Shown in pieces: positions 7,593 to 44,263 of a stretch of DNA of 45,554 bases. The notes below the pieces were generated by a model. That model saw only the letters and a program-made list of their open reading frames with translations. It did no database searches and was not told the origin of the DNA. A program made the position numbers and the translations under genes. Source of the stretch: Dimargaris cristalligena (taxonomy: Eukaryota); NCBI GenBank assembly GCA_003614675.1, contig ML002302.1, forward strand, positions 1-45,554, in the 5' to 3' direction. Each line of letters begins with the position of its first letter. Position 1 is the first letter of the stretch.

Positions 7593-10500
7593 TTAACATT
7601 TGGGCTCCGTGCCGGTCCGGCGCAAGTTAATCAAGCCAAGCACGTCACGAGTGTACTTGAGCCGCTTTAGCACATCGTTATTAGCCCGCAAATTTTCCAA
7701 ATCGGTCAGGGCGTAAGTACTGGCTTTACCCTCCGAAATGTACGTAATCACTTCGCCCCGATTTTGAATGATTAGCTTGGAGTGGTCATGGATGAAATTG
7801 AGCTGCAGGACCCGGTGACTAATGCGAAAGACGGCGGCGTACTTGGTACGGATAAATTTGTTCAAGTAGAGCAGGTTATGGGCCGGGTCACGGTTAGTCC
7901 AGGCCAGGGGGCAGTGGGAACTATGGGCCACCATCCCATTGGAAGTGGGGTCAGAGCTCGGACTGACGGCGGTGGTACCGGACGTTGAGGTAAGTTTGGC
8001 GCGGTCAGCCGCCTGTTGGGAGTCTGAAGCGCCGCATATACAGAGGGAGGGGTCATTATCCGATTGCCCCTCACCCGAACTACTGGCGTTGTACCAGAAA
8101 CTGGGGTTATTTCGGTGGGGGTTCGATATATTTTCGGGCACGGTGTTATGCAACTGTTTCCGCATGTAGCGCCGGAACTGGAGAAGGAGGGTGACCTTCT
8201 TTTTCAAATCGGATGGGTAACTGTCCAACGTGTGGGATTCCCGTTTAATGGACTTTTGCGACTTGGTGGGGTCGTAGAAGAGATGTTCGATACGTTGCTG
8301 ATCGGGTAGCAGCAATAGGGTGGTGTTATCATTGAAATGCACCCCGTAGGAATTGTTGGTCAGCTCGTAGCCCAGCCCATACTTGTTGGAAAGGTCGATC
8401 CACTTACTCATGAACACCTTAGGGAAGTGGGCTGCTTTGGGGTCTGCCGTAACACCCATCCGACTCGGATCCGGCGGGGTGTTGTGAAGGTCCTGGAAGA
8501 ACTGGTTAATCCGGTTTTCCATACCAGACATAACGGGACACTTGCGGTTGCGGTCGGGTTCAGACGAATGGTGGCTCGGGGGTGAGTCGGCCTGGGGCGG
8601 CGGGGGTGGTAGTGCGCGTGACACCCCCGGAGAGGCAGCCCCCGAGGGGTTGGGCTGGGACTGGCTGCGCGGGGGCATGGGATGACCCGACGCCGGCGGC
8701 TGACTGGGCCGAACCGAACCGGTTGGACCGCCACTTGGAGAAGCAGGTCTTTGGAAGGCTGACCGAGGGGTGGGCCAGGCGGAAGATTTGCTGGCGACAA
8801 CCTCCTGCCTACTTGACATGGGATTGCTGCTGGGTTGGGCATGGGAGACTCGGGGACTAGATACGGCCCCGGGGTTCTGGATGGACTCGGGTGTATCCGG
8901 AAGCTGCGCGTCTCCCCGGGCGTAAGGCGATTGAGGGCTGTATTGTCCGGAGCGGTGGGAATGGGGTTGGATATTGGCAGTGGAGATGGGTTTAGGACTG
9001 GATTGGCTGCGACCACTTGGATAGCCGGCCGAGCCCTGGCTCGCGGGTAATGAGGCGGATTTCTCTCGGTTAATGTGGAGCTGTTGGAGCTGGGCGGTCA
9101 ATACCTCCGGGTGGGCCGGCCTAGAAGAGTGTGAAGGGGGGGCCGCCGCTGGCTCGCCCTTACCATCAGTGATGGCTGCGGGTCGACGGCTGTTAGTTAG
9201 GGAAGCCGAATTACTCCTGGAACGTCTGTACGAGTCTGGAATTTCGGGGGCTTGGAAGAAGACGGAGCGGGGCATGTCGGGCAAGAGATTATAATTAGCG
9301 AAAAAGGCCATGCGGCGAATCTCGTAGGCATTGGGTCGTTGACTGGGGTCTTTGTTGAGGAGTGATAAAATGAGATACTTAGCGTCCGATGAGACGCGAG
9401 GGGTGTCGGGGAAGCGACACTCCTCGTTGGAGATTTTTTCGTACAGGAGCCTGGACTGGGCCTGCTTAGCACCCCCCGAGACGTGGAACGGGGGTTTGGA
9501 GTAGAGCATACTGTACATGACGATGCCCAATGCCCAAATATCGACTTCATAGCTGTGGCCGTCTTTGGTTCGGGCAATAATTTCAGGCGCCAAGAAGTTG
9601 GGGGTGCCGAGGAACGACTTTTTGCGTTCCTTGTCGGTGCCCAGCATGGCCGAGAGGCCAAAGTCGGCCACCTTGACTTGCATGGACTCGGTCAGTAACA
9701 CATTGGCAAATTTGAGGTCGCGGTGGATGACCTTGTATTTATGCATATGTTCGACGGCATCGATGAGTTGGTACATGAAATAACGGACCTCGGGCTCCGA
9801 TATGCACTTGCGGGTCTTGAAGATGGCGTCCAGGCTCTGCAGGGGGGAGAGAAGAAATAATGCGGGCGGAATACAGCATACAATTGGTAGGAGCGAAGGA
9901 TTAATACTAGGCCCAAGTACCAGTAAGACCAGGGGAACATCCTCATACCAAAAGGCCGTCTGGGGCTAGAGGGATCTAGTCTCCATAGCTGCGGTAGACA
10001 GGGGGGTTGAGAGAGAGAGAATACCAGTTGGGGTATTTGGGAGACTACCAAATATACCAACATTAAAAGCTCAACCAGGCCGGCCGATTGCAAATGAGGT
10101 ATCAAAGAGCAGAAAGTCGATCTATCGCTATAAATGAGCAGGGGTGACAATCAAGCACCCCTTGCGGAGTTTCGCGAAGGAATGGAATTGCGAAGTCAGT
10201 GACGATCTTGGCGGAAGAAAATGCGGATCGGGGTTAAATCGAGCCACCGGGAGCGGCTGACAGTCAGTGGATAGACGCCCTCTACATGGGCGTTGCATTT
10301 CAATTTAATTTAATTTAATTCGATAAACGGGGATATCTAAACCAAAAACACTGACCAAGCCTAAAGTATGGGGGGGCGAGGACTTACCTTACTAGAGCAT
10401 AACTCCATCACAATATACACGAAGGCATTATCTTCGAAACATTGAACGAAACCGACGATATGGGGATGACCCGGAAGTTTACGCAGGGTTTCGATTTCAT

Positions 10501-11037
10501 TGATGAGCCGTTTACGATACTGCGGGTTCTTGAAGTTTTGCTTGTCTAACACTTTGCAGGCATACCGCTCTTCCTTATCATTGACCACACTGTAGACTCG
10601 ACCAAAGGCACCCTAAAAGGAAAAACAACAAATGGTGAGGGAATGCAAAAGGGTGGGGGATGGACATATACTAGGCCTATAGAGTAAGAAGTCAAGTCGA
10701 GAAAACAAATAGGTGGCATATAAACCTCGCCCGGACAAGAAGGGTTGTGGCCCATGTGCATATAGGGCAGGTGTGACTCTAGGAGAGGGTGCCCGGTGGG
10801 GTTCTTCTCTGGGAAAGGCACATCCCCAACAACAGGCCGACCAGGGCTAGCAATATAGACAAGGTAATAGAAATAAACACGTACAGCACCGACGAATTCC
10901 TGGGGACGATATTCGCTTCGCAGCTTCTTGTCTCGGAATATAGAAGGGAGATGGGGCCAGACGGCGTCTTTGAACGGACGCGGCGGGGCCAATTCAAAGG
11001 TTTTTAGTTTGGGGGTGCCAGCACTGACAGCAGCCAT
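7593..11037 (-). CDS. CDC5: Polo-like serine/threonine kinase (Cdc5/Plo1/PLK1 family), about 873 aa, 3 exons
   Basis: Exons 11037-10885, 10612-10388 and 9836-7593 (donors GTACGT, GTAAGT; all phase 0). Kinase motifs GAGAFG, ACK, HRDLK, DFG, GTPNFLAPE, GHSYEVDIW. Polo box 1 KWIDLSNKYGLGYELTNNSYGVHFND, linker LKKKVTLL, Polo box 2 QLNFIHDHSKLI. A Pro/Ser-rich linker lies between the kinase and the Polo boxes. Confidence 0.95.
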
Positions 11038-15488: not shown

Positions 15489-15606
15489 TGTGAGATGTTT
15501 AACCAAGTTGTATAAACGAAGAATCGGCGGAATAGTCATGCTTAACCAGTAGTATTTGCCTCATCCAACGGATTTATTGTTATACAGCCTGGTTGAATCT
15601 TTTCCA
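15489..15606 (-). mobile_element. MITE family copy F (internally deleted, 118 bp, reverse orientation)
   Basis: Reverse complement reads TGGAAAAGATTCAACCAGGCTGTATAAC...GGATGAGGCAAATACTACTGGTT...TTATACAACTTGGTTAAACATCTCACA and aligns with copies A and B. TA on both flanks (15487-88, 15607-08). Confidence 0.8.
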
Positions 15607-19604: not shown

Positions 19605-22604
19605 ATGAACGCCGCTAAAGGTTCGTCTGACGACCCCACCCATTTGGCTGTGACCAAAATGCTCAGCGAACTCTCCCAGTCCATAATGAAGGAAGCCCAA
19701 GCTATTCAGACCACCGCCCAACCCTCCCCCTCTTCCATCACCCACCCGGTGGTGGAAAATAGAGGGTTTGTCATGAAACAGGATATAAAACCCATGACTG
19801 CCCCCCCGCCCCACTCGAAGCCTAGTCTGATGCATATGCCACCCCCGGCTGCCGCCTCTCTAGGGAAACCATCCACCCCCCTGGGAGCCCAGCACCCCAT
19901 GGCAAAGGCTAATCAAGTCGAGGACTTTATTGACCGCCAGGCTAAGCAACCCCGGGTGGGCAATCAGTCCGGCTCGTCTAGCGAATCCTCGGAGGACGAA
20001 GGGGCTGGGGGGGCCACGTACGCTCGACTACGGGACGACAAGAACTCTCTTAAACTGCGGGCGAGTCGCTGGAATTCCCACTCCGACTCCTCCTGGCCCC
20101 AGGGCAGCGAGTCCCGCCGGGGTGGGCCAGACCGGGGTTCAGCCCACGCCAATGAGCGCCCCCAGCGCCAGTCAACTAATCGAGACTCCCCAGCGCGAGG
20201 TGAGTCCCGGTCGGACCCGGCCCTGATTCTGCTTACCTACCCCACTGACCTGGAGGTCAATAAGAACGACCTGTTCTTCTATTTCAAGCGCTTCGGTTGG
20301 ATTGCCCATATCGACGTCCGGGACGATTTTGCGACTGTTCGGTTTGCCAGTCCCCGGGAAACTTTCGCCAAAACTCGGTTCTTACCTATGATCAGCCTCC
20401 GCCATCGCCCCGTGGACCTACGGGTCCTGAGTTACGGCGACGTCGAGTCCGATCCCCGGCTGAACTCGCGGGATTCTGAAGGGTCCTATGGTCAGCGTTA
20501 CGATAGCAGCCGCCCATCCAACGATCGGGACGAAAGCCGTACTCGGGACCGATCTGTCGGTGCCCCCCACGGCAATAGTCGTCGTGACCAAGAAAATAGC
20601 GACTTTTACCGGCCCAATGGCGCGGATCGCGGTCGGAGTCCACCTCCTTCCTATTCTAGGCGCGAGTCGGCTGGTCGGGGGCGTTCGCGCTCCCGATCCC
20701 GGTCCCCTGGCCCACGCTACAGTCGGCGGAGCCCTTCGGCTAGCCGTGAATCAGCGGATGTCACCCTCCGCCGGGCTGCTCGTCGCCAGGATGGTAAAAT
20801 CCCTTACTGTGAAATCGTGACTTTCAAATCTGTGCATAGGTAAGGGTCACAATTGCTCCTTAGGTGTTACCCCCCGTTCATTTATATTTTGGACATATTC
20901 TATAAGTCGTTGGGCATTCTACTATGGTTTTCTTTTTTCTTTTAAACTCCCCCCCCCGCTATTGTACTAACCGGGATTTCCATGTCACTGTTTTCGTTTG
21001 GTGCGCCCCAACTACAGGAGTTTTATTCAATCGACGATGGACTTGGTCAAGAATCAGAAAGCATCAGTGCACACCATTTATTGTATGGACCAGTTTTCCC
21101 TGACGGATGTTCGTAACTATTTCTTCCAAGAGGGGGTTGTAGCCATACTCTACCTGGATCCCCAGTCGGAGTCGACACGTAAAGGCAGTCTTTATATCCG
21201 CACTCACCCGAAGACTAACTCTTATGGGGATTTCCGTAAGTACTTACTTCGTTACATATGGCATTTTACTTTACTCTGCCCTTACTTCGGACTTACCTGT
21301 TTTATTTCAATCGGCCCCTTGCCTATATTTAGGACTTGGCTGGCTGCTCACTTGTGCGACTCGCCACAGTTGCCTACCTAATTTCACGTGCTAAAAGCGA
21401 TGGTACTAACAACCTAATATATGGGTTAACCCACACTTTGCACCTTCCCTATGGCCGATGGGAATCCATTTCTTGGTTTTCACTAGGCGAATACAACAAT
21501 GTCAGCCTTACTCACATTATGAATACGCTCAAACAGAGCGTCGAAGAACGGAAGCGCCGTATATCTAGTACCTCTCGAACCAGTTCCCAGCATACCACTA
21601 ACTCTTCATTTAATCGCCCCAATCAACCTCCAGCTAACGCTGAACCTACAAGTGGGCAGACCCCCGCCGCTCCCGTTGGATCTCCTAACGATATCACGCC
21701 CAATCTCTTAGCAAATCTCGCGTTTCCCAACCCTGGTGCGGCCAATACAGGTGGCTTGGATCTGGGCAATCTTGGGGGTCTAATTAATCTCCTTAATATA
21801 CAGAATTCTCTCCAGAATCAACTCCAGCCCCTACTTGCCTTGGCACAGAACCCCGGGCTATTGGCCGCTTTGATGGGAGCTAGTCAGAAATCCCCGGGCT
21901 TAGGAGTCCAACAACCACAACAACAACAACAACAACACTATCAGCAACAGGCTCCCCTGGGCTCACCCAATTCAACCAGTGGACATGGTGCCCAACAACC
22001 CGCCATGGCAACCAACCCACTATTAAGTTTACTGGGTAATAACGCACACCTTTTGGCCCAGCAGCAACCCCAAGTATCGGCTGCGCCCCAAATGTCCTTG
22101 GGCGGGGCGGGCAACCCCCTTCTCCAATCCCTAATGATGATGGGTATGAATAATCCGGCGATGCTCAGTAATGGTGCGGTTCCCCAGAGCGGCATCCCTC
22201 CGCCTGCCCCCCCGGGCCCTCAACTGAGCCCCCCCATTAGCCATAGTTCTAACGCCAACGCCCTCCTGAGCCAGCTTCTGGCTGCTAACCAAAATCAGAA
22301 CGGAATGTCTGCCGCACCACCCGCGGTTAATCCAGTGGTTACTGCTCAGCCAATTGCTTCTCCCCATTCGGAGTATATGGCCCGATATACCAGTAACGGT
22401 AGTAGCTCTGGAAATGGAGGAGGAATCCAGGCGTACTCCTCGTTTACCCACCCAACATCGGCAGCCATGGCGCCTACAAATCCAACTTACAGACAGGGGG
22501 AAACTCCGGAAAACCCACGTGTCAGCCATCCGAAAACCAGCTTGGCGTACCTTCATAACTCGGATCGACCGACGGACGATAATGGTGAACGTCACCGGCG
22601 ATGA
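19605..22604 (+). CDS. Nab3-like nuclear RNA-binding protein (RRM, RS region, alpha/beta domain as in fungal Nab3 homologues/NCOA5, Q/N/P/G-rich tail), about 856 aa, 3 exons
   Basis: ATG in CACCATG context at 19605. Exons 19605-20839, 21018-21235 and 21487-22604 are GT-AG and frame-consistent. RRM-like NKNDLFFYFKRFGWIAHIDVRDDFATVRF; GRGRSRSRSRSP; spliced domain RRQDGKIPYCEIVTFKSVHRSFI...QEGVVAILYL...DFREYNNV resembles the post-RS domain of fungal Nab3 homologues; polyQ low-complexity tail. The family call is from remembered motifs. Confidence 0.75.
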
Positions 22605-23369
22605 ATCCCAATGCTAAAGTGTAATAGCGCGCTACATCCATAGCTCACATTTTACGACTATCGAAATTTAGAACTCAACATAATGTGCACCAAAATGATT
22701 CCGAAAGCTACCCTCTTCATTCTGATATACCAATCTACGGGATGTTAGAGGAATAGGAACTTAATCCAAAGTCGAGGATCCGAATTCATAGAAGATTAAA
22801 GGCCTTGGTAACCGCCGGGTTATGTTTTACGTGACGTTAATTACGTTTCTCCCCCTTTCCTTCCACTGACTGATTTTATTGTGCAAATAGGGGCTTGAAG
22901 TGTGTGAGGAGGGGGGATCGGGAATACATCCAGCGGGTATATTTGAGGTCGCGTATTAGCATTCATCATGCTATCTCAAGTCACGAAACTATCACTATCC
23001 ATTTTGTCTCCGTTCATCTATTCTTATTATATTTACTTATCGAGTGTGGTTACAATCTTTTACTGGAGGTTGGTCGATTGAAGTAGAGGGAGGGACGATT
23101 TATCTTCCTAAGCAGTATACTATGGCTAACCTCCATCTGTATTAGTGTTGCACCACTTAGTCATATGTGTCATACACTATTAATTTTTTTTTTCAAATTT
23201 GCATACCCTTAGTTAATGTTCCCGTTAGTTTTTTAAAAATATAATATAGCAGTAATCGGTTCTACGCTGGGCTATCGAAAGTGGGGGTGCCAATTTTTTA
23301 TCAGGACCATGAATAGACAGTCTAAATCATGAGCTCCGCTTACTCTTCTTCGGTATGGGATTGTTCATA

Positions 23370-23507
23370 TGGGAGTAGTTCAACAAGGCTGTATAATGAA
23401 AAATCCATTTGATGAGGCAAGTACTACTGGTTGAAAATAAACATCCCACCGATTTTCCCATACACATATCAGTTAAACCCTTATACAGCCAAGCTGAACT
23501 TCACCCA
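23370..23507 (+). mobile_element. MITE family copy A (138 bp)
   Basis: TA|TGGGAGTAGTTCAACAAGGCTGTATAA ... TTATACAGCCAAGCTGAACTTCACCCA|TA. The termini are imperfect inverted repeats (22 of 27 positions by hand count) with TA on both flanks and no coding capacity. Confidence 0.88.
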
Positions 23508-23859
23508 TACGGTTTCTTATTATAGAATTCGCAAATAGACGATGGGAGTAAACTATCGATAAGAAATAACGTATAGCGGTTGATCGCATATTCCTGGCAA
23601 CCATGTGCCAGTTCTTTTATATCGTTACACTTGTATTGGTAAAGCACAGCACCCTTTGTCCTAACCGGACAACTCGTACACCTCAGTCCTTCCCTTTCCA
23701 GATATTCCAAAAAAAAAGTTTAATCTATTCCAGCTGTGTACTTAATGAATCCCCTGCCGACGGTAATCAAAACGCAACCCAACTCCGAATATTCGAATTA
23801 CAGTTGCTGGTGTGAAAACGCGACAGCTTTTATGGATCGATTGCGAATACACGAGCTAT

Positions 23860-27542: not shown

Positions 27543-27949
27543 AGGATTCAGTTTATCCCTTCCTAATCTCATTGAATCCGGGTCTGACTGCTCGACTACG
27601 ATCTGAGAATATAAACCCCCTCTTTTCTGCCTCTGTGGTTCCCGATTTCTCAGTACAACAACCACTTCTTCCTCGAAATTACTATTACCTTTGGGATTTC
27701 TTCAATTCTCTCTTATTTTTTGGTATTTTTCGGCTTTATCAAATTATAGCTTAACTTCCAAGACTGCAGGCATTGTCTTCGGTGTGCACTCCGTGAGGTC
27801 CACAATTATTACTTCCTATTATCCAAGCCAATTCGTGTATTTAAATTTGCCTTGGATTATCTCCAAGCCATTACTGACCCACTCGTCTTCTACGCCCAGC
27901 TTTACCCTCACCCCTCTACTACCGTAGTTGTTTCGAAAGAAATAAAAAA

Positions 27950-28111
27950 ATGACCACCTTTAAACAGTTGCTGGTTATCGCCCTGGTCTTCGGCGCCGTC
28001 TGGGTTGCCGCTGCCCCTGCCTCCAACACGTCGTCTAGCGACACCGCCCCTTTGGCCACCCGGGCTCCCCGAGCCAAGGATGATGTTGTCTGGTCCGACC
28101 GCCGCGCTTAG
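27950..28111 (+). CDS. Small secreted peptide precursor, 53 aa (below the ORF-track length cut-off)
   Basis: MTTFKQLLVIALVFGAVWVAA-APASNTSSSDTAPLATRAPRAKDDVVWSDRRA*. Classic n/h/c signal peptide, A-rich start context, GC-rich codons in AT-rich surroundings. Upstream TATAAA (27610) and a likely 5'-UTR intron 27793-27927 (GTGAGG...TACTGAC...CGTAG). Confidence 0.75.
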   Translation: MTTFKQLLVIALVFGAVWVAAAPASNTSSSDTAPLATRAPRAKDDVVWSDRRA

Positions 28112-30183
28112 GCACTCCCAACACCACTGGCCCCTCTTAAATCTCACTTGCAGTCGTCCCTCCACCCTACACGCCTTCTCTCACTTGCTTTCTTGACGAT
28201 AGCTAGCTCTACCGTTTCCGTATACTTTTAACCCCAATTTCACTTGTTTTCTTTGATTTTTTTTAACCAACTGATGCCCCTCCTCCCATATTTGCCACAC
28301 TTGTCCTTACACCGGCATTTATTTTGTTTACGATCTTTCTCATTGCCCTAAGGCTTGGAATCATTTTTTGAAAACGGCAACGGTCCAATACTCTTCCCAT
28401 TCAGTGAACTACCTCCTACCCATCACTCCGTGACACCCCCCTCCTTCCAATGTCTCTGACTGGTGGGGAAAGGGGTGAATGTTGGACGTGGTTGTGATGA
28501 TGGTATGTAGTATGTTCTTTCAGCCGTGGTCCCCGTTTCGTGGAGGACATGCGAAATCCTCATTGATTTCCCAATCATCCAATGTACCTTGCCTCTTTGT
28601 TGTTCTGATCAGTTTTTTCATCGCGACCCATGCTAGCTTTTGGCGTCATCAATAAATACCAGTTTTTGTTTTTCGGGGCTTTCAAACTTGTGCTCGCCTA
28701 TAATTTCTGCCAGTGCTTTGGGTTGGAGGGGGGGGGGGTTAACCGGAAGTGCAGCGCAGTATTTAAAGGATATGTTTTGCTTACCTTAATTTGCATAAAG
28801 CCACGGCGTCACATAGTTTACCTAGAAGTGCCAAATCGTTTACTAGCTGTAGTACAGACACGGACTGCTCTGTATCGAAAATTGTTTTTTTTTTTTTTTT
28901 ACAATTTGAATATTGTTTCATCCACCAATTTCTATGCTATGCATCGCATCGACTTCTATAAATAGCGCTGTTCTATAGTCCATAATATCCCGTGAAATTA
29001 ACAATCGATCTCGCAGCATCTTAATTCTAACTATATTTTGAGATATGACTGTCGTCGAGACTAGGGTGTTTATTACAGCGCGCCATTTCCTGAAAGACTG
29101 TATTATTGGTAGGCAGGGTACCGTGTTTTTGCTATTACTGAAGGGTGGGGGCAATTCTAAAAATCAAATAAGAAACAGTCTAGTGGAATTGTAATTATAA
29201 TTAGTGAATTGGATAGTTAAAATATCGGTATAGTTGTTAAATGGATGGGTCACTGTGGAACCGCCACCATCCCTTTTTGTCCGAACCGACTGCCTAAATA
29301 TCAGCATTCGGAAACCAAAACGGGATATTCGCATGGCTTTGTTTATTTACAGACCCGAAATCAAACAAGGCGCTTGGTGAACCTCCCGATTTCATAATTG
29401 TAGGGCTCCGGCTTCAGCTTAGCGCATTTTAACCCGCCCATTTATTTTCGTAAATCCGCTTAGTCATAAAGATACATGCGACCTTCTAATTCTCATTTTA
29501 CTTACCACTATGAGTAGCCATTAGGATGTAGAATCAAATGCAGTCGATGAAATATAACCGTATTTAGAATTTGGTGCTTGGTGGTGGGGAAATAGGTCGT
29601 TTGTGGCTACTTCCGGTTTATTCCGATTTTTCCGGGTAAATTCACATAACTCGATACCATTCCTTTCCGTCAAAGGAAAAAGTATAGGGGCTTCTGGGAC
29701 CGGGGCGTGCTACGCATTTTAGATGGGACCGAGTCCCCGTCTACAAGCATTTCAGTGCACTGCCTGAGAACCCTTGGTCTTTGGTTGGGTCCGATTAGAT
29801 CGATAAATCCAATAGATCATGAAGGCATTGCATTATAGACCCACAGTCAGTGCCATCACAAAAAAAAACTCGCATGTAAATGGGTCAGTGGCCCAGAAAC
29901 TCAATATATCGCGGAGTTTAATATTTAGTGCATCTATATCCCAGGACACTGCGCTATTAGCCATCCCCACCGGTAATATTATCCATAGACCGCACTAAAG
30001 TTTTGGTGGACTATTGTATTAATTTTCATCGTCACCCCTCATCGGTGCCCTTAACCGAACTAACCAGCGCTAGGGGCTGATTGATAAAGCATGTCGTCAC
30101 CAACTGATTTACTTTACCATCCCCTTTTGAATTATCCATTTTATTTTATCGGTCTTTTTGATTCTTCCTGGTACCCCCCCATA

Positions 30184-30321
30184 CGGCTAGGGTTCAACTA
30201 GGCTATGTAACGAACAATCCATTGGATGAGGCTAATCCTACTGGTTAAAAATGAATCACGCGCCTATTTTCCCACATACTTATCATTTCAAATCTTATAC
30301 AGCTGTGCTGAATTTCTCACA
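30184..30321 (+). mobile_element. MITE family copy C (138 bp, moderately diverged)
   Basis: TA|CGGCTAGGGTTCAACTAGGCTATGTAA...GATGAGGC...CTACTGGTTAAAAATG...TATTTTCCCA...TTATACAGCTGTGCTGAATTTCTCACA|TA. Same length as and colinear with copy A. Confidence 0.82.
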
Positions 30322-30804
30322 TACCCTTTGCATTTTACATATATAGAAATTCATTATACCAATATATCGTCAACACCCAGCACTACCGGTGGCGCCTTTA
30401 TTAAACAACACTTGTGTCCAGTCCGGAGTAGAGTACGCCAAATGCCCTCGTTTCACCCAGTATTCCTCCATAGGTTATGCATTGTTCCAATTGAAAAAGC
30501 AAGTACCTCTTCGAGCGAAGCTTCGGTGAATTATTAAAAAGGGGTGTGGGGATGGAGCAGATGAGTGGAGGAGAAGGACCGATCCCAATTAAAACCCCTG
30601 GAATCTATTGTCTTCGGTTGCTAGGACTTAGTGGCTGAAACTGGGATGCCCCAAGCATCAATAAAACCCCGCCCCTGGCATAGCTAACGCCAACCCCCCC
30701 CCCCCTAGCACCTAACCTAATTTTAGATGAGAGATTCTATATATTGAGAAGTAGGTTTTAGAGTAATACAGGGCAGTCCCGAGAAACGATTCTCTCTGTC
30801 TATA

Positions 30805-30942
30805 TGGGAGTAGTTCAACCAGGCTGTATAATGAAAAATCCATTTGATGAGGCAAATACTACCAGTTTAAAATGAACATCCCACCGATTTTCCCATACGC
30901 ATAATAGTTAAACCCTTATACAACCAAGCTGAACTTCACCTA
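30805..30942 (+). mobile_element. MITE family copy B (138 bp), running into a (TA)n tract
   Basis: About 11 substitutions and no indels relative to copy A (hand count). TA on the left flank, (TA)n at 30941-30964 on the right. Confidence 0.88.
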
Positions 30943-31060
30943 TATATATATATATATATATATAAGCAATGTGCACCGGAGTCATTTTATCATCAAGATT
31001 TCTACAAGATCTACTATAGCGCCACCACATCCCCCTATACCCAATTCATTATTCATCAAA

Positions 31061-31393
31061 ATGCGGCTCGCGATTATATGTCTAATTATTATACAGTGGA
31101 TGGTCATTTCCTCTGCTCGACCTGTGCACCGGTTTGCCATTGAGAATATCAAAAACTTCATCAACCCATATGTCCATGTCATCTCACCGGTAAGTTTGCA
31201 TCCCTGTTGTAATTGGCTAAAATCAGATATAGCTTATTCGTTTGAGCTCAGCTCTGGATCATTCGCTACACTCGAATACGTATTAATGTAATCTATCAAT
31301 ATTATACTTCGTAATTCTACTCCCCAATTCTAGAAAACAAGCGATGCCAAGCACAGCTCTAGTCTCCGAAGTACACCCCCGCCATCCCAGTAA
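31061..31393 (+). CDS. Small secreted peptide, 62 aa, 2 exons
   Basis: Exon 31061-31189 MRLAIICLIIIQWMVISSA-RPVHRFAIENIKNFINPYVHVISP, GTAAGT donor at 31190, TTCTAG acceptor ending at 31333, exon 31334-31393 KTSDAKHSSSLRSTPPPSQ*. AAAATG start context and TATA-like tract about 100 bp upstream. Confidence 0.6.
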
Positions 31394-32604: not shown

Positions 32605-34125
32605 ATGTATCTCCTACTCGTCATTCTATTCATCTCATTCCTCACCGAAATATGCCACTGCATTGGCTATTCGACGCTTGCTAGCCAGGTCAGTTTCCAG
32701 TCCCCCGAGCACGGGTGTACCACGCCAACCCACCCGGTCTATGGACACGAGGTGCACCGCGCTTGGCCTTCATTTAGTGTTCGAGGGATCAATGAACCCA
32801 TTTATCCTCCAACCTTTCCATTTGCTGATTTAGACGACCCCGTGTACTTACCACTAATTAGCCATCTACGGACTTGACTTTTTTCACCAACTATTCAATA
32901 GGCGTGGTACTGGTATCGCCGCATACTCTTTGCTAAAGAAACCGCGGCCCAGCAAAAACTTAAGGATGTCCTCCTTGCCCTCAAGACCGAGCTCCGCCAA
33001 ACTACAGCACAGGTAGGTTCACCACTGTGGTACAAATAAGGAGAACTGGAATCCAAGGGCACTGCCTAACACAGCTCTGGTATTCCACTTAGGTAATAAC
33101 GGCCTGATACTTGTCAACTAACGCATGGAATGAACCTGCGTCGAATCTATTATATATACCCCTAATGGCCACCTGGGTCGTGCTCTCTATATAGGACGAA
33201 TTTGCGCGATGGGCGAAGCTAAAACGTCGCCTGGACAAGGATATGGCCACCTTCGACAGCAAAAGTAAGCCCTCGCATTCCCAATGGAATTGTGTCTAAC
33301 GCCATTTACTCAAGTTTACTGAAAACCTTTCCCTGGTTGAGCTCCGACGGTGCCCGCTCACCCAATGCATTGGAGGATAGTCCTGTCGCTAATTGGTCTA
33401 GAGTTGCATGCTAAATCCATACCGTCACTAACCCATTTTTTGTCCTATACCCCAACTGCATCATTTCATATATCCCGGCTTTTCAGCATCCGAGCAGGCC
33501 TACGCCAAATCTGCCTTTGAGATCAAAGTGACTATCTTTATGCGAATCTTTCTCTACGGCATCCGCTCCTTCGTTCTGTTCTGGTATCGTTCGTCCGCCG
33601 TGTTCTTCTTGCCCACCCACTGGTTTGATCCCATCTCATCCTTTTTGGCATATCCCCTGGCTCCCACCGGTAAGTACTTCACATGAGTAGGCCGTCGAAT
33701 ATTAAATTGGCGAGTCGAAGGAGTTTACCTCGACTACCTTTTTTTTTGTCCATCGCCCGTTCTCCCAGGTTGGGTGGCCATCTGTAAAGGGATGGCTGTC
33801 ATGGCCCCTGGCATGCATTAGATACGGGTCACGGGATAACCCGGTATTGGGTTGCCCGAACTGAATATGGGAGGGAGGGCGGGTTGCTTAGTATCCCTCG
33901 TTTCAATGCTCAATGTGCTGCCTTTCGTAGCATCTATTATGCCCACCTCCATCGGTATGTATATTATGTAACTAATCGAATGATTTCCCAAACTGAAATT
34001 TTGATTATGTATTCCAACCAGGTTCGGTGAGTGTCCCTATCTGGATGTACGTGTGTCACCGCGTTTGCTCACAGAGTGTCCGAACCATCCAGCAGATGGT
34101 TCAACCGGCTGATACCAAGTATTAA
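32605..34125 (+). CDS. GET1: Guided entry of tail-anchored proteins factor 1 (Get1/WRB/CHD5-like), 183 aa, 5 exons
   Basis: Exons 32605-32688, 32902-33012, 33195-33264, 33487-33669 and 34022-34125, all GT-AG and frame-consistent. N-terminal TM, signature TTAQDEFARWAKLKRRLDK, FWYRSSAVFFLPTHWF, PLAPTGSVSVPIW. Confidence 0.93.
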
Positions 34126-34691: not shown

Positions 34692-35009
34692 TCAGTGGCA
34701 GCATTCCGCTGCTGGGGAATCCTTTATATAATCGTAGATTGCCAGGAAAAGGTGCTGCCTGGAAGATGGCACCGGTTCAGGATGGCCTTGCTGACAACTT
34801 TCGACTTCGGATTCCTGATGATACTACACCAATAGCCCATATAAAGCCAGTAAATATAAGCATTTAGATATTTGTTTTAACCCTATCCCCACAATCATAA
34901 TAATAATCATAATAATAATAATAATAATAGTACTTACCATACTATACGTGGTTCCAATGATCGAAACCACAACACATAAAAGTAGCAGGTTGCGAAGAGC
35001 CATGGTCAT
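34692..35009 (-). CDS. Candidate small secreted peptide, about 67 aa, 2 exons
   Basis: Exon 35009-34938 MTMALRNLLLLCVVVSIIGTTYSM (signal-like), GTAAGT donor at 34937, intron carrying an (ATT)n tract, GTAG acceptor ending at 34824, exon 34823-34692 YHQESEVESCQQGHPEPVPSSRQHLFLAIYDYIKDSPAAECCH*. The acceptor choice is uncertain. Confidence 0.45.
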
Positions 35010-36597: not shown

Positions 36598-38940
36598 CTA
36601 CGCGGATTTAGAAATCGGCATCTTGTATTTCTTCCAATTCTTAGTATTAGGGACTTTAGGAGCCCGCACAGTCCCGCCGGACTGATCGGCCGCGGCTTTC
36701 CGCTTAGATTTTTTGGATGACTGTGAAGTATTTTGGTTATCCGTCGGGTGGTGGTCCATGGGCTCCACCGGAGCGAGCACCTCCCACGCCGGGAGGGACG
36801 TAAGGTCTTCAATAACTTCGGGTTCTCCGACCCGCTCAAATAAAGCGGCGAAAAACCCAATTGTATGATCCATATCCGGCTGACAGCGAATGACGCATTC
36901 CGCCTGTTCGGCCGTTAGGGGGTGGAGCTCCGACTCCTGGGTGTCCGTGGGCGAGTCGTCCAGAACGGCATCGGGTCGAGGTGTGGTTGGTTCGGGTAGG
37001 CCAGAGATACCCCGGTGGGTCCAAGTGGGTAAACACCGTGGCCGCTCTACCAGCTGGAAATGGGGGTTAGTGGCTAGAACGCGGGCCACCACTGATTCAT
37101 TTTCAATGTGATGCAGAGAACAAGTGGAATATACAATGCGCTTTACACCCGGGACTGGTAACCGCGATAAGTGAATATCCGCCCGGATTGGATTAAAAGA
37201 TACGGCAATATAAAAATAAACAAAGAAAGGTGGTTACTGTGTTAGCAGGCAGCTTGATAATGGGGGCACGATATATTTGGAAACATACTTAGCCGGGGGG
37301 GGGGGTTACACTACCAAACCTACAGTTTGGGGAGGGGTAATTCACCCAAATCTATAAGCAACTTACATGTCATGGCGTGGTTGAGTAGTCTGACCTGGAC
37401 CTCGGCTAAATTAGCCAGACGTTCCGCCAAACTGATCCGCTGGCGCTCTTGCCGGACGTCCTCATCGGCTGCGAACTGATCGACCAGATAATCCAACCGA
37501 TTCACGATTCCCGATCCGGAACACGACGGGTCCAACAATATATATTCCACCTGGGCCATTTCGCGGGAATGGGGCGGAACTTCCATGAAATCCCCCTGCA
37601 GGGCCCGGATGGCGCGGCAACCGGCCTTGCCGGTGAGGATTTCGAGGGTCCGTAGCCGCCGCGGGTCTTTGTCAAAGGCATAAATGGTACCCTGATTCGC
37701 CATGAGTCCGCACAAGTGACTGGTTTTATTACCCGGTGCGGCACAGGCATCGATCACCTGAGCGTGCGGGGCGGGAGCTAACAGGGTGGCGGGGAAGCAG
37801 GAAGCCTTGTCCTGGAGGATAATGTCCCCCGAGACAAAAAGAGGGTGGTCATGGAGATCAGTTTGGACGGGAAAGACGAGCATATCGGATAAGTGTTCGT
37901 CGATTTGCATGACCTGACCTCTGAATAAAAAATATAAAAAAGTAGGGTGATGGGTATGCGTATCAGGTGTAAGTCGTCAAGGGAGGAATTGGGTGTACCT
38001 CATAGAAAATGAGTCCTGTTGGGTAAATTTTGGAATATAAACGCCACAAATTCCCCTATAATTGGCCTTAGTATCATGTAGTAGCCAGCAGTATCAAGGC
38101 AGGCAGTTGTCATCTCAGCAATGTAAACCGAAACCTACTTGAGTTTTGATAGCAGTACCGGCGGCGTATTGAGCACGAAACCCTGCTCTTCAAATTTCTG
38201 GATAACCTTGGCCATGGTGGTTTTGAGCAGATTGATCCGAACGTAGCGCGGGGGTGTATCTATAGGAGATTGTTAACAGCATATTAATGTAAAGGGATCA
38301 GTAACTAGGTACAATGGCCTATCTAGAGTAACACAGGGCAGACATATAGCCAGGGCATATGGCAGGGGTTATTGCTCCTGCTATAACCCATAAACATAAT
38401 ACAGTGGTTAGCCATTTCTACCATTGAGCAATTCAAATACATACTCAGAGCGAGGTCAGCGGCCTCCTGTAGCTGCTGTTTCTTTTCCAAATTCCGTTCG
38501 GCTACGAGTTCATCGAGTGCTGTTTCGAGCTGGGGCCGCGCCGCCGTCATGCACTCCTTCAGTAATCCCCGCGGCAGTTGCACCGTACCCTTCTTGGTGA
38601 ACAAGGTATCGTGAGTCAACACCAGCGCTAAACTCAGCGAGTCGTTTAAAACGGGATACTGGGCCAGAAGGTCGCTTCGCTCAATGATCGTCGTGAGAGC
38701 TCGGGCGTATTTGAGGGTCTCACACACTAGGGCGTAGAGGGGGCGGCGTTTTTGGTCGGGGACGTCCCGGTTACCAATGGTCAGACCCTTGATGGTGCCC
38801 GACCGGTACTTCAGCCGGTCCAGGACTTGCCGGGCAAACTCGTACAGGTCGGTTTGACCAGCACTAGGCCGTCTCCGATCAGAATGGGTAGAATGGTGGG
38901 CAGGGCGCGGGGCCTTATGGGGCAGGCGATTAGGGGCCAT
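36598..38940 (-). CDS. RCM1: 25S/28S rRNA cytosine-C5 methyltransferase (NSUN5/Rcm1), 575 aa, 4 exons
   Basis: Exons 38940-38445, 38259-38139, 37920-37367 and 37154-36598 are frame-consistent. N-terminal LYALVCETLKY, PRYVRINLLK, ILQDKASCFPA, IDACAAPGNKTSHL, catalytic LLDPSCSGSG and VYSTCS...ENE, GFFAALF, basic tail. Confidence 0.95.
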
Positions 38941-40369: not shown

Positions 40370-40624
40370 CTAATTCTTGGAGGCACTTTTGTTGCATGCT
40401 TCTTTCTCGGCCAAAGTGGCGTGTTCGTGGCCCTGCATGCACATGAACAGCTTATGTTGCTGTTTGGGATCAAAGGGGGCACGCACCGATGCGTTGAGTT
40501 GGGCTTGGACCAAGTGGGAAGGTCGCATAGCAAGATCACTCTCGGCGTTGGGCAATACGGCCGCCGTGGTGAAGGGGGTCGCAATGGTCAAGAAGGCGAT
40601 CAGAAACGTAGGGCAAGGGCGCAT
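40370..40624 (-). CDS. Small secreted protein, 84 aa, single exon
   Basis: MRPCPTFLIAFLTIATPFTTA-AVLPNAESDLAMRPSHLVQAQLNASVRAPFDPKQQHKLFMCMQGHEHATLAEKEACNKSASKN*. Signal peptide, GC-rich codon usage, TATAAAA on the minus strand at 40738-40732. Confidence 0.7.
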   Translation of the reverse strand: MRPCPTFLIAFLTIATPFTTAAVLPNAESDLAMRPSHLVQAQLNASVRAPFDPKQQHKLFMCMQGHEHATLAEKEACNKSASKN

Positions 40625-43442: not shown

Positions 43443-43580
43443 TGGGAGAGGTTCAACCAGACAGTATAATGAATAATCCGGTTGGCGAAACAAAGCCTAC
43501 TAGTGAAAAATGCATCCCCTGCCTATTTTCCTCTAAACGTATCATTTAAAGCCCTATACAGCTCGGCTGATTTTCACCCA
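43443..43580 (+). mobile_element. MITE family copy D (138 bp, diverged, TA flanks not retained)
   Basis: TGGGAGAGGTTCAACCAGACAGTATAATGAATAATCC...CCCTATACAGCTCGGCTGATTTTCACCCA. Same length as and colinear with copy A. Confidence 0.78.
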
Positions 43581-43999
43581 CCTTTGTGTTGGGGAAGCGA
43601 AGTAGAACAAAGCGCTTCTCGTTTCCCATCCCGCTGTTTTTTTCTTAGGCGTAGGCTTTGAACCTTTTCCTGGCCCCCTTTCTATTTTACATCCCTATTA
43701 TTTCAAGCGGTAAGCCCCATGCCTAATAGTAGAAATACACATATCGTAATAAAACCAAACATAGCCATTTTACTGAATTTACTGAGCAAGCTATCACTAC
43801 CAGGGCCATGATTAAACGGGGCACCTCTTCGGAAGTTAACAATAAAAAATAATAATTGCAAGTGTAGTATAATCAAATCAATCATGTGGGATACGTCCTG
43901 CAAATAAGAAAATAAGTGAGTATGGTGATGAGTGAAAAAATATAATAGCAGCTAACCGGACAGTCACCATTCTTAAGCCGTTTCAGGCATCCTGGACTT

Positions 44000-44263
44000 T
44001 CACTTGCGAGATGGAGGCTTGGGAACGGTCAAAAAATTGGGATTCTGAGGGGGGACTGCGTTCGGGCGATTGGGATCATTCTTGTTAGGAAACCTGGGAG
44101 ATTTAATATTAAAGGTCTTTTTGATTCTCCCTTTGAGGGAATAATAAGCTTGCTTTACAGAGGGCAACTTAATAGGGGCTGGGCTGGCAATAGTGACATT
44201 GGCCAGTGCTAAAGCAACGAGCCCCAACAGGCCGAGAGTAGCAAAGGAAGAAGTGAAACGCAT
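44000..44263 (-). CDS. Small secreted Pro-rich cationic peptide, 87 aa
   Basis: MRFTSSFATLGLLGLVALALANVTIA-SPAPIKLPSVKQAYYSLKGRIKKTFNIKSPRFPNKNDPNRPNAVPPQNPNFLTVPKPPSRK*. Clear signal peptide; TATAAATA on the minus strand near 44450. Confidence 0.72.
   Translation of the reverse strand: MRFTSSFATLGLLGLVALALANVTIASPAPIKLPSVKQAYYSLKGRIKKTFNIKSPRFPNKNDPNRPNAVPPQNPNFLTVPKPPSRK

Follow-up and report, generated by a model that had tools for sequence, protein, structure and literature searches.

A putative secreted 53-residue prepropeptide of Dimargaris cristalligena with candidate kexin sites around a single tryptophan-containing core

The locus considered here lies on contig ML002302.1 of Dimargaris cristalligena, in a stretch of 45,554 nt that was analysed at its full length (hereafter the window). 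D. cristalligena belongs to the Dimargaritales within the Kickxellomycota, outside the Ascomycota, and the Dimargaritales are described as mycoparasites (PMC9866270). The locus contains a short single-exon ORF whose translation resembles a small secreted precursor, with candidate regulatory elements on either side of it. Its features and neighbours are the following:

27610..27615, + strand: candidate TATA box (TATAAA), the only TATAAA in 27550-27960
27793..27899, + strand: probable 5'-UTR intron, delimited by sequence motifs (donor GTGAGG, branch CTGAC at 27874, acceptor CAG)
27950..28111, + strand: single-exon 53-aa ORF, from translation, codon bias and 52/53 identity to KAJ1990456.1
27950..28012, + strand: putative signal peptide, residues 1-21, from hydropathy, with cleavage after residue 21 or 22
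28013..28063, + strand: Ser/Thr/Ala/Pro-rich pro-region, residues 22-38, from translation
28025-28033, + strand: N-T-S sequon within the pro-region
28052-28063, + strand: LATR at the end of the pro-region
28064..28072, + strand: spacer A39-P40-R41, in which R38-A-P-R41 forms a second candidate kexin site (Pro-Arg)
28073..28099, + strand: acidic Trp-containing core AKDDVVWSD, residues 42-50, from translation
28100..28111, + strand: terminal RR-A-stop, the only dibasic site, in the context SDRR
28651..28656, + strand: possible polyadenylation signal AATAAA, the only one in 28112-29200, about 540 nt past the stop
7593-10612 (- strand), 19605-22604 (+ strand), 32605-33700 (+ strand) and 36598-38940 (- strand): neighbour genes

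The neighbours are ordinary. Pfam recognises a polo kinase, an NSUN5-like methyltransferase and, near 19.6-22.6 kb, an RRM/SR-like gene; a further gene is by eye GET1-like, and lies with the NSUN5-like one at 32.6-39 kb.

The case for a gene at 27950-28111, which ends in TAG, comes mainly from codon usage, scored with a synonymous codon model trained on nine other genes. The ORF ranks first among the 71 short ATG ORFs between 22.7 and 36.5 kb, and again first among 1103 short ORFs in 245,554 bases, a sample made up of the window and twenty 10-kb stretches elsewhere in the genome. Its score of 0.36 bits per codon, a noisy estimate from 52 codons only, lies above those of all nine training genes (-0.05 to 0.32), and the bias extends through the signal (0.37), the pro-region (0.43) and the core (0.26). 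Beyond the TAG the score is -0.15 and the GC content drops from 0.64 to 0.44. When the region from 22.3 to 32.9 kb is divided into coding segments, the ORF is the sole strong one (32 bits, with all others at 13 or less). A protein of the same 53-aa length, KAJ1990456.1, is predicted in another assembly of D. cristalligena and is listed in NCBI as hypothetical protein H4R33_001708. Given the codon bias, the coding segment and this near-identical protein, the gene is probably real and was predicted before without being named. The description of a tiny missed gene thus stands as regards a small gene that looks real, but its counterpart is already in the NCBI annotation as a hypothetical protein.

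Three other readings of the locus were considered and set aside. The frame stays open for 39 codons past the TAG, and a read-through product or a GPI-like tail in that stretch is ruled out by the codon score. An upstream coding exon is ruled out by the lack of an ATG and by codon scores near zero or negative. The placement of the gene inside a repeat-bounded element is likewise rejected, since inverted repeats are absent and about 2 kb separate the gene from the closest dispersed repeat.

The TATA element that had been noticed upstream was located at 27610, and the leader that follows it is pyrimidine-rich and carries no ATG across 27610-27949. The 5'-UTR intron had been placed at 27793-27927; its donor (GTGAGG at 27793) and branch (27874) are retained, but the first AG past the branch CTGAC is the CAG ending at 27899, leaving the TAG ending at 27927 as a second option. 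The choice of acceptor does not affect the coding ORF.

The translation contains all the elements that the earlier note had listed, in the same order: a hydrophobic N-terminus, N-T-S, LATR, AP-RA, KDDVVWSD, RR-A and the stop. Hydropathy in an 11-residue window peaks at 3.14 over residues 7-17, in the N-terminal third, and the remainder is hydrophilic; this peak and a small-x-small cleavage motif together define the putative signal peptide. LATR starts 13 residues past the putative signal cleavage point. The segment AP-RA may alternatively be read as two dipeptides, X-P and X-A. Three contexts for kexin-type cleavage (P4-P1) are present, namely LATR at R38, RAPR at R41 and SDRR at R52, the last with one residue behind it.

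To gauge how much of this layout follows from composition, residues 22-53 were shuffled in 200,000 trials. The strict layout recurred in 0.021% of the shuffles, a loose version in 0.8%, and a site followed by 5-20 aa and a dibasic pair in 2.9%; general definitions of the layout gave 0.9-2.9%. Single elements were frequent (dibasic 43%, LxxR 12%, sequon 22%), so the order of the sites exceeds what composition yields by chance, and the sequon does not. Dipeptides AP and RA after the monobasic LATR, as opposed to KR or RR, were seen in 1% of shuffles, the confinement of all four Arg to candidate sites (extended kexin motif) in 1.9% of 100,000 shuffles, and the restriction of all basic residues to the C-terminal half in 4.4%. 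As these patterns were picked after viewing the sequence, 1-3% is the fair estimate of how often chance would produce the layout. The general layout of a site, a core and a terminal dibasic pair occurs in 19 of the 1103 short ORFs, and the 53-aa precursor is the one ORF of the 19 whose codon bias exceeds 0.1. The coding signal, the hydropathy profile and the shuffles support the earlier proposal in so far as it sees here a small precursor, destined for secretion, in which kexin-type sites are arranged in order.

We searched for relatives at several levels. Pfam gives no family match for the precursor at E<=1, MF_alpha and MF_alpha_N included. A word-index protein search returned KAJ1990456.1 as its sole candidate (1/1), and none of 94 candidate longer proteins matches at E<=10. 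A phmmer search of 1.84 billion representatives, in which orthologs within 50% identity would sit hidden in the cluster of KAJ1990456.1, produced three matches: KAJ1990456.1 itself and two long metagenome repeat proteins (P0003, P0004), which we rejected as homologues because the matches are of low complexity. A profile built from the precursor and nine related signals matched 3 of 127 candidates, all from D. cristalligena, and the ESM Atlas held nothing usable for the whole precursor or for residues 22-53. Within its own genome, the precursor finds itself and one weak signal-only match at the protein level, its mature part finds only itself, and the gene finds only itself at the DNA level. 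A pattern for the core has two matches in the genome, the second outside any signal ORF; a looser pattern has 13 matches, as against 27 for a control, and only the precursor itself lies in a signal ORF.

Across these protein, profile and genome searches, no ortholog outside D. cristalligena and no paralogue was found; such blanks count as weak evidence for a 53-aa query, small genes being often unannotated. KAJ1990456.1 is conspecific and shares 52 of 53 positions with the precursor, a distance too small to reveal selection. A literature search on Kex2 in Dimargaris and on Kex2 and secreted peptides in Zoopagomycota, with most subscription journals outside its coverage, returned nothing on the gene, and the core motif is absent from the supplement text of two KEP surveys, the rows of which list accessions and not sequences. 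We conclude that the ORF is probably a real gene and a single-copy orphan, apparently just one of the many small orphan genes for secreted products that this genome contains. It would be an unstudied orphan among kexin-processed secreted prepropeptides, the protein itself having already been predicted in NCBI without a name.

The signal peptide of the precursor resembles that of a family of secreted proteins in the same species. This family comprises at least 15 loci, on 14 contigs (L007-L021), encoding Cys-free proteins of 58-248 aa. Their conserved 23-aa signal leads into 3-6 X-Pro dipeptides, behind which comes a cationic tail rich in Lys and Ala. The X-Pro start is present in all 13 members examined, and early stops occur in 2 of the 15 loci. 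One member (P0006) has no Pfam match, and a profile of the family matches only D. cristalligena; two further proteins of the other assembly correspond by eye, letter for letter, to the loci L010 and L016, so that the two assemblies are too alike for selection to be read from them. We take the layout of these proteins to resemble that of melittin and cecropin precursors. The precursor signal aligns in the same register as the family signal with 6-12 of 23 positions identical, and scores 36 (region-shuffle P 2.5e-4), whereas 13 members score 53-65 and one scores 32, a comparison to be read in light of the family having been discovered through this very resemblance and of a design without unrelated signals as control. 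The rest of the precursor is unlike the family: AP occurs once, and the tail is close to neutral, with 5 K/R and 4 D. The family may possibly be of more interest than the precursor itself.

If the basic sites are used, an enzyme to cut them is at hand. One kexin gene was found in the genome (G000:C197), encoding a 979-aa protein with Peptidase_S8 (E 5e-46) and P_proprotein (E 3e-27) domains. Inspected by eye, the pro junction of this kexin has the sequence RFKR and then AP, so that its P4 residue, like that of RAPR, is Arg; yeast Kex2 accepts a basic P4 as well. Two near-identical secreted ORFs of 132 aa with high codon bias (L064:164 and L064:2358, + strand) have a short pro-region that ends in LERR, with Gln as the next residue, and this is probably a canonical site for kexin. 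The kexin pro junction and the LERR pro-regions of these two paralogues suggest that kexin processing is likely in use in this fungus.

The extended motif of Kex2 tolerates Leu at P4 and Thr at P2 and disfavours Asp at P3 (PMC8528282), so LATR fits well and the canonical-looking RR sits in a poor context. Kex2 is known to cut after Pro-Arg, and many Arg sites escape cutting (PMC6624476). Basidiomycete KEPs are cleaved after single Arg residues and Trp-containing 6-11-mers derived from them are detected (PMC9769878), and LxxR pro junctions of other fungi are cut in vitro (bioRxiv 10.1101/2020.05.27.120113). A second kexin cut at RAPR would make a Ste13-type enzyme unnecessary.

These considerations lead us to favour, tentatively and at slightly less than an even chance, a single-core prepropeptide from which kexin would release one short linear Trp peptide beginning at A39 or A42, to act as an extracellular signal or effector. 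What the analysis shows is that the ORF exists, that it carries a coding signal and the described layout, and that the genome encodes a kexin; expression, secretion, cleavage, product and role are inferred, as follows. The signal of 21-22 residues would take the precursor into the ER, and the Ser/Thr-rich pro-region would serve as a disposable carrier along the secretory pathway. The sole kexin found would, by analogy with the specificity of yeast Kex2, cut after LATR38 and probably also after RAPR41. The product would be a short, unmodified, acidic peptide whose first residue is most likely A42 or A39 and whose C-terminal RR-A is kept or trimmed, to give AKDDVVWSD, AKDDVVWSDRR(A), APRAKDDVVWSD and the like. 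Calculated monoisotopic masses are 962.435 for residues 43-50, 1033.472 for 42-50, 1345.674 for 42-52, 1416.711 for 42-53, 1357.663 for 39-50 and 1740.902 for 39-53. Outside the cell it would most likely function in a biotic interaction (with self, a mate or the mucoralean host), in the manner of linear KEP peptides. Against this reading, both N-terminal sites are non-canonical single-Arg sites, there is one core per precursor, so that the product is not amplified as KEP products typically are, the specificity assumed for the kexin is that of the yeast enzyme, and the sole homologue, being conspecific, says little on constraint. A narrower version, in which two monobasic kexin cuts yield from the single core, free of Ste13, a pheromone or a host-directed ligand of a seven-helix receptor, strikes us as distinctly unlikely.

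Comparison with known systems places the single-core prepropeptide near several classes. It would work like a KEP or an alpha-factor precursor reduced to one core and is a member of neither. With KEPs (such as those giving the -AADW and QYKAPSW peptides in Agaricomycetes; PMC6339444, PMC7329392 and PMC9769878) it shares a non-repetitive pro-region, basic sites and a short linear Trp core, behind what is here a putative signal; single-Arg cuts likewise appear there (PMC9769878), and the kexin that KEPs require is encoded in the D. cristalligena genome. The KEP pipeline calls for at least 4 fragments on KR/RR cutting and at least 3 similar repeats (PMC6339444), whereas the 53-aa precursor has one RR, one core and no repeats, and Ste13 was not found. 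Because KEP surveys demand repeats, single-core precursors of this sort escape them. The knockout of six kep genes gave no axenic phenotype (PMC9769878).

The K2PP effectors (SnTox3, ToxA, SIX1/4/6) share with the precursor a pro-region that is of low complexity, is longer than 4 residues and has LxxR at its end. Their rules, as set out in bioRxiv 10.1101/2020.05.27.120113, place LxxR, KR or RR more than 4 residues past the signal and assign over 50% of the mature protein to the C-terminal part. The position of LATR agrees with the former, and the C-terminal part falls narrowly short of the latter, with 15 of 32 residues. In contrast to these effectors, LATR precedes a 15-residue unstructured peptide and not a folded Cys-containing domain.

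The first alternative is that the protein is secreted essentially uncut, as a disordered glycopeptide of 31-32 residues that might serve as a small effector or as a wall or surface component, its Arg sites being incidental. The sole dibasic site stands one residue from the end in a poor context, the dibasic and LxxR motifs are each frequent by chance, and many short Cys-free secreted proteins of this fungus do without dibasic sites; of 14 X-Pro family members, 12 have none. The confinement of the basic residues to the C-terminal half and of all four Arg to candidate sites argues to the contrary, as do the presence of kexin and the in vitro cutting of LxxR pro junctions in other fungi, and we see uncut secretion as somewhat unlikely.

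The second alternative is the exact route of ascomycete alpha-factor (MF-alpha; Kex2, Ste13, Kex1), which the earlier note had proposed. Kexin would cut at LATR and RR, a Ste13-type enzyme would remove AP and RA, and Kex1 would trim RR to leave KDDVVWSD. The likeness consists in the prepro plan, the sequon, the candidate X-A/X-P dipeptides behind a basic site and the terminal dibasic pair, and the rarity of the strict layout in shuffles speaks for it. In at least 13 other secreted proteins of this genome the signal is followed directly by 3-6 X-Pro dipeptides, and such starts may hint at a dipeptidyl peptidase step, either the fungus's own or the host's. Unlike alpha-factor, the precursor has LATR in place of KR, dipeptides AP and RA in place of the usual EA/DA type, no repeats and no MF_alpha match. 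In SDRR, moreover, the P4 residue is Ser and the P3 residue Asp, and a single residue follows the site.

The route also calls for an S9B peptidase (Ste13/Dap2/DPP IV), and no such gene was found in the assembly with PF00930, PF00326 or a bacterial S9B query, in an exon-by-exon search with a lossy first pass over 2220 contigs that could miss a gene. PF00930 gave no candidates in D. cristalligena, and the same search matched 5 of 14 control genomes. PF00326 gave seven matches, none of which looks like DPP IV (two of the seven judged by eye): in Pfam, two have prolyl-oligopeptidase N-domains, one is APEH and one is an S9 catalytic fragment only, and of the remainder one is close to acyl-protein thioesterases and two are, by eye, short hydrolases. 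The bacterial S9B query, which has Pfam DPPIV_N at E 1e-66 and detects eukaryotic DPP4 at about 130 bits, recovered in the genome only the APEH gene (E 6e-4). On the other side, an S28 proline-specific peptidase gene is present (at C147), and Coemansia and Conidiobolus, both Zoopagomycota, are not among the taxa listed as without Ste13 in Table S1b of Le Marquer, with a loose BLAST test behind the listing (PMC6339444). The apparent absence of S9B is an observation in its own right, the enzyme being described as widespread in fungi. With no S9B found, a poor SDRR and an RAPR that would make Ste13 unnecessary, the claim that the product is exactly KDDVVWSD made by alpha-factor maturation is not borne out, and we regard this route as unlikely.

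A third possibility is that the gene is a remnant, namely the signal and pro-region of a formerly longer secreted protein that the TAG behind RR-A has truncated, or else that it is a young orphan without selected function. The frame open past the stop, the want of a homologue outside the species and the early stops that break 2 of 15 loci of the X-Pro family are compatible with it. It would, however, account poorly for the abrupt fall in codon score and GC content at the stop and for the identical 53-aa length in the annotation of the other assembly. The strong codon bias also suits an old or highly expressed gene better, the X-Pro family scoring -0.20 to 0.12. A remnant or young orphan accordingly appears quite improbable.

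Very unlikely, in our assessment, is a structural peptide in which an aggregation-prone VVW core coats spores or aerial hyphae like Rep1 of Ustilago. High codon bias suggests abundance, and the peptides that Kex2 releases from Rep1 form amyloid-like surface fibrils (PMC8528282), but the core here comprises 9-15 residues with only three hydrophobic ones and 3 Asp, as opposed to the 37-residue repeated peptides of Rep1, and there is a single copy per precursor.

A RiPP precursor with a cyclised or oxidised core, in dikaritin fashion, is highly improbable and the label of a RiPP-like core finds no support: the dikaritin precursors (ustiloxin, phomopsin, asperipin) do follow a plan of signal plus Kex2-type sites (PMC9769878), and the core has an aromatic residue, but PF11807 (UstYa/DUF3328) has no match in the genome at E<=1 (the control likewise gave none), no tailoring gene or second strong coding segment was found within about 5 kb on either side, none of the 11 stand-alone KEPs listed for D. 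cristalligena bears a DUF3328 mark, and the core lacks both repeats and the Tyr that is mandatory in those three compounds, the last two comparisons resting on PMC7329392.

If the single-core peptide is indeed processed and active, a cheap synthetic 9-15-mer could serve as a tool for studying how a mycoparasite mates or recognises its host. Were the ligand reading true, it would supply a signal for a fungal phylum in which few signalling molecules are known. That Ste13/DPP IV is apparently lacking although X-Pro starts are frequent on the secreted proteins of this fungus is noteworthy in itself.

Several other small ORFs in the window resemble secreted proteins. The ORF at 40370-40624 (- strand) encodes 84 aa with a signal-like N-terminus, LAMR followed by Pro, and two Cys, and that at 44000-44263 (- strand) encodes 87 aa with a signal-like N-terminus, an SP-AP start and a cationic tail like that of the X-Pro family; neither has a Pfam match. 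Possible tiny spliced secreted genes, with a signal-like exon followed by GTAAGT and low codon bias, lie at 31061-31390 (+ strand) and at about 34790-35009 (- strand). Finally, a dispersed repeat of about 145 bp occurs at 23362-23509, 30176-30323, 30797-30944, about 15500-15600 and 43450-43590, and is found near 7 of the 15 loci of the X-Pro family and in 5 other loci.
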